Shown here: positions 8,572 to 11,886 of the stretch, piece after piece
Layout: each line of letters starts with the position of its first letter
Position numbering within the stretch: position 1 is the first letter of the stretch
Assembly (NCBI GenBank): GCA_045805065.1
Contig: JBJMMA010000248.1
Span: forward strand, 1-26,166
Direction: 5' to 3'
Source of the DNA: Bdellovibrionia bacterium
Lineage (GTDB): Bacteria > Bdellovibrionota > UBA1018
DNA: 26,166 nt
Notes under the pieces: generated by a model
Database searches by the model: none
What the model was told of the DNA's origin: nothing
The model's input: only the letters and a program-made list of their open reading frames with translations
Translations under genes and position numbers: made by a program

Positions 8572-8961
8572 TTAAATCATCGCTTGATGGTCTTGAAAGA
8601 TACAGTTCCCGGAGATGACCGTCATCCCAAGGGAACGGGCATGTTGCTCGGCCTCTGAGTTCTGCGCACCCGGCTGAAGCCAGAAAACGGCTGGCTTCAA
8701 TGGCTGCACTTCCTCAAGCAACGCAGGAATTGCGTCGGGTGACCGATAGACATTGACGATCTCAAGCGGTTGCGGAGCTTCTTCAATCGAAGCCACGACT
8801 GGAATGCCGGGAATCTTGGGAAGTCCCGGATTGACGCCTGTCACTTCAAAACCATGGTCTTGAAGATAACGGGCAATCCAATGACTTGGGCGAGATGGAT
8901 TGGCGCTGATCCCTACAACAGCAACCCGCTTATAACGCTTTAAAATGTCTGTTGTTTCCAT
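8572..8961 (-). CDS. CoA-binding protein (YccU-like)
   Basis: VAVVGISANPSRPS..IA.YL...G..V..VNP, V.VYR, WLQPG, C near the C-terminus. ATG at 8961 overlaps the upstream TAA (TAATG). Confidence 0.9.
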   Translation of the reverse strand: METTDILKRYKRVAVVGISANPSRPSHWIARYLQDHGFEVTGVNPGLPKIPGIPVVASIEEAPQPLEIVNVYRSPDAIPALLEEVQPLKPAVFWLQPGAQNSEAEQHARSLGMTVISGNCIFQDHQAMI

Positions 8962-9938
8962 TAGGGATGTTTGAATGCAAGTTGCGAGCACTCCGCAAAT
9001 GCAGGAGCAAAGGCCGCTCGCGCCTTTTCGTCCATATGCCTGTACAAATACGCTCGAGCCTCGCAAACCTGGATGGCGTGAGGATCTTTTGCCTGAAGCG
9101 CTGATGCCATATCGAGCTTTCCCACCGGAACCTGGCCCTGAGGGCATTCATACCAGATTGCCCAATCATTCCACTTGGCTCGTGTCGGCTGATTTCCGCA
9201 ATAAACGGTAATGAAGCGATCATTGGCGTTCAGATCCGCGGCCCTGTGGTTTCGAACCGTCATCGTGTCCTGCAAAACTGCAATCGGCTGAAAGAAGCCT
9301 TGTACGTCTGACATGTACCGAAATGGCGCAGCTGTAGAAACAGGCGCTGGCGCATTTTGCTGATGGCAGGCGCCACAGTGATTCGACTGACGAAACTGAT
9401 TTCGGATTGCTTCATTCGCTCGTGGATAAAAAAGCGCGACCAAGGCCTCACCTGCGGCAACGTCCGCAACATCGTCTTTGCGCGCCCACTCGTATCCTGC
9501 AAGCTGATGGTAATCGACTCCCGGCGCTGGCTCAAAGACATGGAAAACGGCACTTCCGTTCTCATCGATTCGGGCGCCTCGCACGTCACCGACGCCATAG
9601 ATCGGAGAATCAAACTCCACTCGATCCGCAATGGTGCCGGGTGGATAAACCAAGGTATACCGATCTTCTCGCGAATCATTGATTCGATAGGCTGTGATCT
9701 TCCGGTTTTCTGGGAGCTTCAACCAAACCTGAATAATGTCCGTGCCCTGACGATTTGAAGGAAGCCGTAAAGGCGCGACCATTTCAACAAAGCCGCTGTT
9801 CTTCCAGTAGTCCCGTTGGTTGGGCAAAGAAAGCAAGGGGCTCACTGGGCCCGCCCAAGCACTACCTCCTGCGAACAGCTCCGAAAGCACAAAGCTTAGA
9901 AACAAAGCGGCTCTGAGTATACACAGGTCCTGTCGCAT
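8961..9938 (-). CDS. Exported hypothetical protein with a single CxxCH (putative c-type cytochrome)
   Basis: Signal peptide ending AWA|G; CGACHQ motif; additional Cys residues in the C-terminal part. Confidence 0.65.
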   Translation of the reverse strand: MRQDLCILRAALFLSFVLSELFAGGSAWAGPVSPLLSLPNQRDYWKNSGFVEMVAPLRLPSNRQGTDIIQVWLKLPENRKITAYRINDSREDRYTLVYPPGTIADRVEFDSPIYGVGDVRGARIDENGSAVFHVFEPAPGVDYHQLAGYEWARKDDVADVAAGEALVALFYPRANEAIRNQFRQSNHCGACHQQNAPAPVSTAAPFRYMSDVQGFFQPIAVLQDTMTVRNHRAADLNANDRFITVYCGNQPTRAKWNDWAIWYECPQGQVPVGKLDMASALQAKDPHAIQVCEARAYLYRHMDEKARAAFAPAFAECSQLAFKHP

Positions 9939-10005: not shown

Positions 10006-11886
10006 TTACTTACAGAAAGGCGCCGCCGGGTCTTTGGAACAAAGATAGACTTTCATCACCGCGTTTTCTTGCTCAAGTTTTTGGATTTGATCGCCATGAG
10101 TAACTATCTTGCGATAGAGCTCTTGAATTGCGTTAATCGCGGCCCAATGAATCGGATCCACGTTCAGTTCGAGATACCCGTCCTTGCGTGTACTCACAGC
10201 CTCGGGGATCACTTCACGCACTTCCTGCGCTATGAATCCTACCTTCTCGAAGTCCGATGGAAGGCCGAGGGCATTGTTCTTTTTGTAGTTATATTTCACG
10301 GTATGAAGTTTCAAGATTTCGGCGAGGCCTTTGTCGTAATCGCCGCGAATATCTTTTAAGCGAATATCCGATGCGTTAGTCCACGCAGTGCCGGTGCTCA
10401 GGCCTGCCGTTCCTACGACATGCAGATTGTAAGAAGGCGATGAGGTTCCTATACCGACGTTACCTGCAAAAAAGCTCGGAGCAGTAGCGTCCGAAGCATA
10501 GAGAGACCACTTATTGGTCGCCAAAATATTACCGATATTGACACCGTAACCAGTGTTAATCGGGCCTGTGCTGGCACTATTTCCGATCTGAAAGAAACCG
10601 CCAATTGCCGCGTTTATCGCGCCAGTGCCACTGTTTACGACCTGAAAGTAACCGGCGTTAGCCGAATTAATACTTCCCGGATTCTGAAAATTGACCACCT
10701 GGCCCTGAACACCGATTGCTGAATTCATAGTTCCGGAACCAGTATTTACCGAACTTCCGCTTACGCCGAGTGTATATAGCATCGTCGCAGTCGACTGGTT
10801 CTTCACATTTCCCTCCACCCCGTAAGCAGACTGAGGCGAGGCAGAAGATTCATTCCAATTCACTTGTCCAAGAATCGAATTGATCCCTCTCAGATTCGTA
10901 TTTGTTCCACCACTTCTGGCATTAACAAACATCGGAATAAACCAAGGACCGCTACCGGGAACATTGTCTACGGGCGGAGAGACCATCTGCGTGAGATTGA
11001 GAGTATAGGCATTTCCGCCTGAGGTATCGTTACGAGTTTCCTGAATATCCAGCTTAGTTGCAGGAGTTGAGGTTCCGATCCCAAGCTTGCCCGTGACATT
11101 ATCTTCAAAGATCGAACTCACGCCAAGCTGCGTGTTTGACGTCCATTTGGCCAAGTAATTTGCAGCTCCAAGGGTCGTCCCAGGAAACGGAACTCCAGTC
11201 GTCACGGACTGAGACTGATCTTTGAGAGTTAAGAGCCCCATACCTGGTGGAGGAGTGATGCCTGGAGCCTGAGATATAGTTAAGGTCACCGTAATAGAAG
11301 ATGCCTGAGCGCAGGTCGCCGCACCGTTCGAACACTTTGGAGTGAAGGCCGTAGTGACCAGAATCTGGCAATTCGCGTTCGGCGCTTGGAGCGATCGATT
11401 TGGACAAGGTGCCCCTGTGAGATCGTAAACGGCAGCGTTTGCATCGGAGGTAGTCGTATCTTTGGGCCCTGCGAGAGGGTTAGAGAATGAATCCGTTAGC
11501 GTAAACCCGTAGCTCTGCGGATTATTGCTTGCGTCCTTAGCCACACAGCCATTGGGAGGAGAGCCGTTCACGCATTTCTCAAACATCGTTGGCGTGCCAC
11601 CACCCGCATTCCCCGGAAAGCCAGCAGAGGTCGAAAACAACAAGCTGGCTTTTAGCGCATCCGAATTACCAGCCTCTCGACCAATCCTGGTCAAAAGCTG
11701 ATCTCTGGAAGCCAACGTCCTCGAGCCTCGAATGGAATGATTCACCGAGGTCATCATGCTGGACATGGAGAGCATCACCACCGCACCGACGGCAGCGGCA
11801 ATCATGACCTCGATGATGCCGAAGCCTTTTTCATCAAGAGAGACGCACTTCCTCAGGCCGCATTCATGTTCAGAGAAGAGAATCAT
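10006..11886 (-). CDS. Prepilin-type N-terminal domain fused to a tail-fibre-like trimer with peptidase S74 intramolecular chaperone
   Basis: KG|FGIIEVMIAAAVGAVVMLSM type III signal; GKLGIGTSTP..KLDI and GNVGIGTSSP..NLHV fibre motifs; Gly-rich 18-19 aa repeats; WTNAS-DIRLKDI...GFIAQEV..VIPEAV...AIQEL plus coiled coil. Confidence 0.85.
   Translation of the reverse strand: MILFSEHECGLRKCVSLDEKGFGIIEVMIAAAVGAVVMLSMSSMMTSVNHSIRGSRTLASRDQLLTRIGREAGNSDALKASLLFSTSAGFPGNAGGGTPTMFEKCVNGSPPNGCVAKDASNNPQSYGFTLTDSFSNPLAGPKDTTTSDANAAVYDLTGAPCPNRSLQAPNANCQILVTTAFTPKCSNGAATCAQASSITVTLTISQAPGITPPPGMGLLTLKDQSQSVTTGVPFPGTTLGAANYLAKWTSNTQLGVSSIFEDNVTGKLGIGTSTPATKLDIQETRNDTSGGNAYTLNLTQMVSPPVDNVPGSGPWFIPMFVNARSGGTNTNLRGINSILGQVNWNESSASPQSAYGVEGNVKNQSTATMLYTLGVSGSSVNTGSGTMNSAIGVQGQVVNFQNPGSINSANAGYFQVVNSGTGAINAAIGGFFQIGNSASTGPINTGYGVNIGNILATNKWSLYASDATAPSFFAGNVGIGTSSPSYNLHVVGTAGLSTGTAWTNASDIRLKDIRGDYDKGLAEILKLHTVKYNYKKNNALGLPSDFEKVGFIAQEVREVIPEAVSTRKDGYLELNVDPIHWAAINAIQELYRKIVTHGDQIQKLEQENAVMKVYLCSKDPAAPFCK

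Follow-up and report, generated by a model that had tools for sequence, protein, structure and literature searches.

The window analysed here is a stretch of 26,166 nucleotides (nt) from a Bdellovibrionia bacterium (contig JBJMMA010000248.1), whose genome, G000 in our numbering, amounts to 4.22 Mb in 262 contigs and is 94% complete. It carries a gene for a protein of 626 amino acids (aa), P0001, and both the open reading frame (ORF) list and the translation show an uninterrupted frame with no internal stop. P0001 is built of four parts, namely a prepilin-type leader, a pilin-fold module, a body resembling phage tail fibres and a terminal S74 chaperone domain (Table 1). The same order, from prepilin signal and pilin-fold head to fibre and S74 chaperone, had been proposed in a first-pass annotation, and it was upheld by the sequence, the models and the conservation among relatives. 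All coordinates which that annotation gave, among them those of the prepilin-peptidase cut and the cleavage serine, were correct, and the two GIGT motifs and GFIAQEV that it listed are present.

Table 1. Parts of the pilin-fibre gene, its two neighbours and the further pilin-fibre copies of the genome (window positions unless a contig is named)
Feature	Position	Strand	Description
Whole gene P0001 (pilin-fibre copy 1)	10006..11886	(-)	626-aa modular pilin-fibre protein with S74 cap, stop codon included; from ORF list and translation
Leader peptide, residues 1-21, Gly21 last	11824..11886	(-)	KGFGIIE at residues 20-26; predicted prepilin-peptidase cut between Gly21 and Phe22 (nt 11824/11823); Glu26 is +5
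Pilin module, residues 22-235 (214 aa)	11182..11823	(-)	Hydrophobic helix with Glu+5 (24-72 in the model) and beta-sheet head with six Cys (105, 114, 161, 173, 185, 192)
Phage-tail-fibre-like body, predicted trimeric, residues 236-505	10372..11181	(-)	Bounded by GxxGIGT 'capping-loop' motifs, GKLGIGT at 266-272 and GNVGIGT at 475-481
Peptidase_S74 intramolecular chaperone, residues 506-626	10009..10371	(-)	SDIRLK at 506-511 with Ser506 (10369-10371) and Lys511 (10354-10356); GFIAQEV at 550-556; then long helix and C-terminal Cys616/Cys625 pair
Upstream HAMP-domain gene, 158 aa	11883..12359	(-)	Pfam HAMP, E 3.6e-07
Downstream 325-aa gene	8961..9938	(-)	N-terminal hydrophobic stretch and CGACH (CxxCH, haem-c-type) motif; from ORF list
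Pilin-fibre copy 2	C152 30219-31838		539 aa, different body, S74 cap
Pilin-fibre copy 3	C259 63435-65510		691 aa, non-S74 C-terminal domain and coiled coil
Pilin-fibre copy 4	C129 11297-13294		665 aa, non-S74 end of the same kind as copy 3

A class III signal consists of a hydrophilic leader ending in Gly, followed by about 21 hydrophobic residues with Glu at position +5. P0001 begins in this manner, with a leader that ends in KG, the stretch FGIIEVMIAAAVGAVVMLSMSSMM directly after the predicted cut, a hydrophobic segment and Glu at +5. The first homologue search returned 210 proteins at E <= 0.001. The closest 13 are nearly colinear over residues ~15-275 and then diverge in their bodies and ends (alignment A1). 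An exhaustive search with residues 1-290 gave 462 proteins at E <= 0.001, including 54 at E <= 1e-10. Alignment A2 was restricted to proteins in which the match covers the module at the protein's own N-terminus, and it holds 64 sequences: 59 from the best 150 of the 462 matches, four from the first search and the window fragment. The 91 of these 150 that were left out nearly all match just the fibre-start motif (query ~214-290), and a few are partial.

In A2, Gly-1 was kept in 61 of the 64 proteins, the remaining three being gaps, while Phe+1 was found in 46 and Glu+5 in 51. In the Cys-bearing, pilin-like head described in the first-pass annotation, cysteines 105/114/161/173/185/192 were kept in 63/64/64/64/64/62 of the sequences and are thus nearly invariant. 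N_methyl was matched by 34 members at E <= 0.001. The members span 218-779 aa and include stand-alone module proteins of 218-400 aa; this genome also encodes on contig C28 a 251-aa stand-alone pilin with the same Cys pattern (23% identical, pairwise E 7e-12). Judged from the alignment, the N-terminus of P0001 is a conserved pilin module and not a chance motif, and the module forms an unnamed six-Cys family, present mainly within this bacterial family. Among 60 relatives searched, it was detected at E <= 0.001 in 11 of the 36 genomes of the same family, and weakly in four of the 24 other genomes of the order (E 8.9e-5 to 8.8e-4). No Pfam model beyond N_methyl matched the module; one relative is named PilV by its source, and Shufflon_N was matched by a single A2 protein. 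As a mere hint, the lack of Glu+5 in 13 of the 64 relatives would fit a position at the very tip of a filament; Glu+5 is also absent from GspK-type tip subunits.

The AlphaFold2 model of residues 1-290, built on A2, had a mean predicted local distance difference test (pLDDT) score of 86.6 and a predicted template modelling (pTM) score of 0.74. It shows a helix of 49 residues (24-72) atop a beta sheet, the 'lollipop' shape of pilins.

The C-terminal part of P0001 belongs to the S74 family. Residues 506-564 matched Peptidase_S74 (Pfam PF13884) at 48.2 bits, above the cut-off of 22, with E 1.4e-12, and the SDxxxK Ser-Lys motif stands at the start of the domain. The family was likewise matched by 19 of the 64 A2 proteins, and SDxxxK was retained in all 19. 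The S74 part also gave sequence matches to MyRF (7dc3) and to a phage tail fibre (8jov). The first-pass annotation had pointed to the mosaic adhesive trimer (MAT) fibres of Bdellovibrio, and this link is real. The end of the crystallised Bd3182 tip (8ojn) aligns with residues 467-506 (E 8.9e-08), the alignment stopping one residue before the cleavage Ser, and residues 474-497 align also to the first capping loop of Bd3182. In structure comparison with VIA-align, which warns that Z values of about 5 or less can be chance, four solved MAT fibres were matched by residues 241-290: Z was 3.8-4.1 for Bd3182, Bd1334 and Bd2133 and 2.9 for Bd2439.

The monomer model of residues 236-626 had a mean pLDDT of 69.1, with the S74 domain above 93 and the body mostly below 65. 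It was left out of the fold searches since it was poor outside the S74 domain, which it continues into a long C-terminal helix at about 576-618. The first-pass annotation had proposed that the protein forms a trimer, and a three-copy model of residues 294-626 agreed with this, as it passed its controls with an interface score (ipSAE) of 0.90 (runs 0.89, 0.90 and 0.91; best control 0.00). At least 91% of contacts agreed between the runs, partner pLDDT was at least 86, and the interface covered residues 337-615. In a calibration made with two copies, not three, 20 of 30 proteins solved as one-chain pairs reached the mark used, as did one of 23 solved as single chains. By prediction and S74 homology, P0001 is likely to be a homotrimer.

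Caulton et al. reported that Bd3182 undergoes self-cleavage by its S74 domain at S782, that the S782A change blocks this cleavage, and that the domain serves as a self-cleaving chaperone and protease ensuring trimerisation (PMC10769870). From the conserved dyad and this experiment we infer that the S74 domain of P0001 would release itself at Ser506. The predicted products are a chaperone of 13.8 kDa and a mature chain of 49.1 kDa (residues 22-505). The earlier suggestion that P0001 is processed at both ends is likely by homology, and the two cuts themselves are predicted ones.

The best match in PHROG was the tail fibre family phrog_1980 (E 5.2e-18, residues 246-612), and 17 families, 13 of them tail families, matched the same residues; residues 1-245 had no match in this search. 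Such matches could mean that the gene is a leftover of a phage or tailocin tail fibre whose prepilin likeness arose by chance. In a related view the S74 domain would be a true protease effector carried by a pilin, and Raynaud et al. interpret the corresponding entry IPR030392 as 'peptidase activity' in their survey (PMC8179133). We regard both as highly improbable. The N-terminal module is without a PHROG match and its signal motif is conserved across 64 proteins, and the Bd3182 domain, as said above, acts as a self-cleaving chaperone and protease. The 26-kb window contains no phage genes and no shift in composition; a prophage origin was rejected on this absence and on the flat GC content.

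The genome has four module-plus-fibre genes with differing bodies and caps, and eight Peptidase_S74 genes in all. The best named S74 match of P0001 was the Bdellovibrio bacteriovorus protein P0021, which, with the taxa of the nearest ESM Atlas clusters, is a lead to a Bdellovibrio-like organism. P0015 is a MAT-like fibre of 1039 aa with an ordinary signal peptide, and its alignment to P0001 begins only at residue 211. The S74 cassette (~470-590) is about 88% identical between the two by hand count on the printed alignment, and the rest about 30%. The sequences point to cassette exchange between fibres that have different anchors.

Not all of the relatives end in S74. P0004-P0011, together with the paralogues on C259 and C129, end in a conserved domain of ~170 aa (GADFAEWV...) and a coiled coil. 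P0004 gave a sub-threshold match to Peptidase_G2 (E 0.0091, 15.9 bits, cut-off 25), which is a lead and not a finding, and a profile of eight non-S74 relatives gave only a pilin-helix match (E 0.43) among the PDB sequences. This non-S74 domain could be a second kind of folding cap. In the representative library, the fibre-start motif (LAKW...GxxGIGT, query ~214-290) recurs up to 25 times in giant proteins of up to 7185 aa.

Two of the paralogues lie among other fibres. On C259 (63435-67761) and C152 (30219-40464), the pilin-fibre gene adjoins fibres of 749-771 aa with collagen repeats and S74, and on C152 SUEL-lectin and ricin-lectin proteins come next, making up a cluster of candidate adhesins. 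In the relative G007 (C9 30901-35470; L035 8890-13470), three genes joining the module to S74 stand in tandem, encoding 502, 504 and 551 aa, with no pilus genes nearby. A DUF4423 helix-turn-helix (HTH) protein and a protein of 248-359 aa precede the pilin-fibre gene on C259 (61319-63201) and on C24 of G004 (L036 6576-8131), and they may be a conserved regulator pair for that paralogue.

Taken together, we suggest that P0001 is, on balance, probably a modular minor pilin that takes a CofB/TcpB-like homotrimeric route to the tip of a type IV filament. The precursor would enter the inner membrane via its class III signal peptide, and prepilin peptidase would remove residues 1-21 at the Gly21-Phe22 bond. 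Three chains would come together in the periplasm through their C-terminal S74 domains, which would zip the body (~240-505) into an intertwined triple fibre of phage type, after which each S74 domain (13.8 kDa) would cut itself off at the Ser506/Lys511 dyad. The resulting trimer of 3 x 49 kDa would stay held in the membrane by its three pilin helices, would prime the assembly of a type IV filament and would end up at its tip, like the CofB and TcpB trimers of type IVb pili. The freed fibre end may then bind a surface structure. Because the organism is Bdellovibrio-like, prey cells are the most likely target. The four copies of this genome, with their differing bodies and caps, would form a small tip repertoire.

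It is possible, and we put this forward tentatively, that Bdellovibrio-like predators in general mount interchangeable phage-type fibres on a retractile type IV pilus through a six-Cys carrier resembling PilV/GspI. Each genome would keep a few such genes, like the four found here or the three tandem genes of a relative, and their bodies and caps (S74 or non-S74) would be swapped as cassettes with the MAT fibres of the cell surface. A single filament would then both recognise the prey and pull, as if a phage tail fibre were mounted on a winch.

Several results weigh against this proposal. The first-pass annotation had named P0001 a candidate pilus-tip adhesin, and the trimeric tips CofB and TcpB are precedents for this; the location on a pilus was not borne out by the surroundings, as no copy lies beside pilus machinery, nor firmly by the fold, as the pilin match was weak (best Z 5.1). 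The prepilin motif taken alone is borderline in the family models: N_methyl (residues 19-41) scored 20.3 bits on the whole protein against a cut-off of 21.2, though 21.9 bits on residues 1-290 alone, and TIGR02532 scored 10.3 bits against 16.3. The three-copy model shows likeness to solved S74 fibres, which falls short of proof of binding, and may reflect memory of them. To fit a one-start helix, a trimer with C3 symmetry must also stagger the pilin heads of its three chains, and the linker (~232-243) is short. A genome of the same genus, G001, has no orthologue (best match 35% identity, E 9.6e-16), and the gene therefore seems dispensable.

The comparisons of the N-terminal module model with known folds gave a mixed result. 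Foldseek found no match in the PDB at E <= 0.001, and the Z values of VIA-align (48,161 chains) lie within the range of the warning given above, which counts against the proposal as does the value of just Z 2.9 for CofB. Within that range, pilins dominated the top 20 (Z 5.1-3.5). The first rows were EpsI (Z 5.1), Streptococcus sanguinis PilA (4.9), GspI (4.8) and XcpV (4.8), followed by ComZ and TTHA1218 (both 4.2), so that the best rows are GspI-type pseudopilins and minor pilins, and numerous other pilins appeared at lower ranks. The evidence of these models for a pilin fold is coherent but weak. The ESM Atlas provided further leads, and only leads: its nearest clusters (scores 0.93-0.90) contain N_methyl-bearing Bdellovibrionota proteins and include one with the automatic name 'PilV family', by structure the module stood beside GspI clusters (TM 0.36-0.40), and its score to a PilV-shufflon cluster was 0.78.

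These fold and naming leads point to the PilV/GspI class, and the genome contains other minor-pilin-like genes. P0001 might accordingly be one subunit of a heteromeric minor-pilin tip complex, in which a single PilV/GspI-like module replaces the canonical PilV or GspI beside partners of the PilW/X or GspJ/K type, and there would be no self-sufficient homotrimeric cap as in CofB. We think this improbable, since all three hydrophobic helices of each trimer need burial and no partner genes are linked to any of the copies examined.

The surroundings of the genes raise a different objection to a tip-located homotrimer. No pilus, secretion or minor-pilin gene lies beside any of the four copies in G000, and none was seen at four loci examined from three relative genomes, which also weighs against the proposal. 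Pilin genes often lie apart from such machinery, and a shared locus does not strictly define a pilin. The orphan location may nevertheless indicate that the pilin-like N-terminus is only a cleavable membrane anchor or export signal. The fibre would then sit on the cell surface, or be pushed out once by a short pseudopilus piston or one like that of the type II secretion system (T2SS), and would have a MAT-like role without ever entering a long retractile pilus. Two of the four copies adjoin collagen-repeat S74 fibres that have no pilin start, the S74 cassette is shared with P0015 and its ordinary signal peptide, and the top fold rows are T2SS pseudopilins, all of which this explanation accommodates. 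Nevertheless, we consider it rather unlikely. The whole six-Cys head of 214 aa is conserved beyond the helix alone, and Glu+5, which is important for filament assembly, is kept in most relatives (51/64); a plain anchor would need neither. Moreover, in a diderm cell a fibre with an inner-membrane anchor can get to the outside only by passing a secretin on a filament.

A filament on which the modular pilin could travel may be encoded elsewhere in the genome. G000 contains two Peptidase_A24 (prepilin peptidase) genes, nine matches over cut-off to the T2SSE family of ATPases and about 16 pilin-type N-termini. The PilD-type peptidase of the genome is encoded on C234. On C35 (14966-21416), a Peptidase_A24 match and a T2SSE match are ~5 kb apart, the latter within an ORF of 814 aa. 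A TadZ-TadA fusion, and tad loci with no canonical TadV, have been described in B. bacteriovorus (2026 preprint, 10.64898/2026.07.08.737194), and the T2SSE-bearing ORF recalls this fusion.

In the window, the pilin-fibre gene is accompanied by a small HAMP protein upstream, the 325-aa protein (predicted to be secreted) downstream, regulators and metabolic genes. The HAMP protein has hydrophobic segments and is without an output domain, and its stop and the pilin-fibre start share 4 nt (ATGA). In the relative P0003 (779 aa), the HAMP protein and the pilin-fibre homologue are fused in one reading frame. This fusion may be real or an assembly error; P0003 would be a prepilin with a leader of ~170 aa containing the HAMP domain and with Asp replacing Glu at +5. 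The HAMP gene as a conserved partner was rejected, for its paralogues in three relatives, 3-6 matches per genome, lie among unrelated genes, with the exception of one that lies ~0.8 kb from a pilin-like gene of 965 aa in G004. No HAMP homologue was found within 7 kb of the other three copies in G000.

The downstream gene lies on the same strand, 67 nt from the pilin-fibre gene, and its product could be placed in none of the families of Pfam, NCBIfam or PHROG. The stretch between the two genes showed no terminator-like site, the terminator and promoter scans did not rise above shuffled expectation, and it is uncertain whether the downstream gene belongs to the transcription unit. The search of genome contigs for related loci, with the window fragment and alignment A1, found no relative. 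In metagenome contigs A1 found none either, and the query P0002 gave one distant S74 match, L039.

The proposal bears on how predators of the Bdellovibrio type join prey recognition to pilus-driven invasion. In the MAT-fibre paper the anchor on the cell side is left unidentified, and the interplay with type IV pili is named as a question of interest (PMC10769870). A fibre with a pilin as its own anchor would provide a concrete and testable link between recognition and pili. If the proposal is true, the catalogued N_methyl-S74 architecture gains a mechanistic reading, in which S74 is the chaperone of a trimeric tip rather than a protease, and the principle of the homotrimeric initiator extends beyond type IVb pili. 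The significance is limited in that the organism appears to be uncultured and that the architecture is already listed in databases and in the 2021 survey (PMC8179133).

Raynaud et al. listed in their Dataset S1 the combination IPR012902-IPR030392 in 29 proteins and IPR012902-IPR008640-IPR030392 in four, and they expected modular pilins to be exposed at the tip (PMC8179133). Those N_methyl-S74 pilins show the same order as P0001, with a class III signal and pilin at the front and S74 at the end, but in that dataset they are merely counted, whereas P0001 has a distinct six-Cys pilin family. An N_methyl-S74 example from Patescibacteria, P0108, shares only the S74 end with P0001 (41% identity over 21% of the query). 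Our literature search found no experimental study of pilin-S74 fusions, only the survey listing and the MAT paper. The architecture is thus catalogued but uncharacterised, and P0001 is not new in kind.

CofB of the CFA/III pilus of enterotoxigenic Escherichia coli (ETEC) and TcpB of the toxin-coregulated pilus (TCP) of Vibrio cholerae combine a pilin domain with beta-rich domains that homotrimerise, as is predicted for P0001, and they prime assembly, sit at the tip and bind a ligand. CofB is reported to be a trimer that initiates the pilus, is located at its tip and binds CofJ (PMC6048534). Because homotrimeric CofB and TcpB are a direct precedent, three pilin helices capping a filament would not be a new principle. 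These proteins differ from P0001 in being encoded within the pilus operon as its sole minor pilin and in lacking an S74 chaperone and autocleavage, whereas P0001 is encoded by an orphan gene, has Phe at +1 and has weak fold similarity to CofB. Sequence searches of the PDB gave no match of P0001 to CofB or TcpB. P0001 may work like them without belonging to their family.

The MAT fibres of the S74 subgroup, such as Bd3182, share with P0001 the trimeric fibre, the GIGT-type capping loops, the terminal SDxxxK S74 domain and the mosaic exchange of tips. The MAT family is defined by a domain that is conserved, rich in beta structure, ~130 aa long and located directly after a Sec signal peptide, and Caulton et al. 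reported this domain after the signal peptide in all 21 MATs of strain HD100 (PMC10769870). P0001 is without it; the anchor domain is replaced by a prepilin signal and a helix-on-sheet module of pilin-like fold. The word 'pilin' does not occur in the main text of that paper.

Phage tail fibres and tailspikes, such as the K1F endosialidase and the T5 fibre, have in common with P0001 the S74 domain, the Ser-Lys motif and the logic of the triple beta-helix. On the other hand, P0001 is chromosomal and has no phage neighbours, and its N-terminus joins a bacterial pilin module, not a virion baseplate. Tad pilins use a different processing motif. The PilV tip adhesins on the thin pili of IncI plasmids and the variable KilN/TadG tips of predatory Tad pili follow the same idea, in which one pilin carrier bears exchangeable C-terminal recognition parts, and KilN was reported to have many disulfides and paralogous tips in a predator (PMC12075869). 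Unlike S74 homotrimers, the Kil tips consist of different minor pilins that form heterotrimers. What is new here is the six-Cys carrier module as a protein family, the fact that it takes the place of the MAT anchor, and a repertoire that has both S74 and non-S74 caps.

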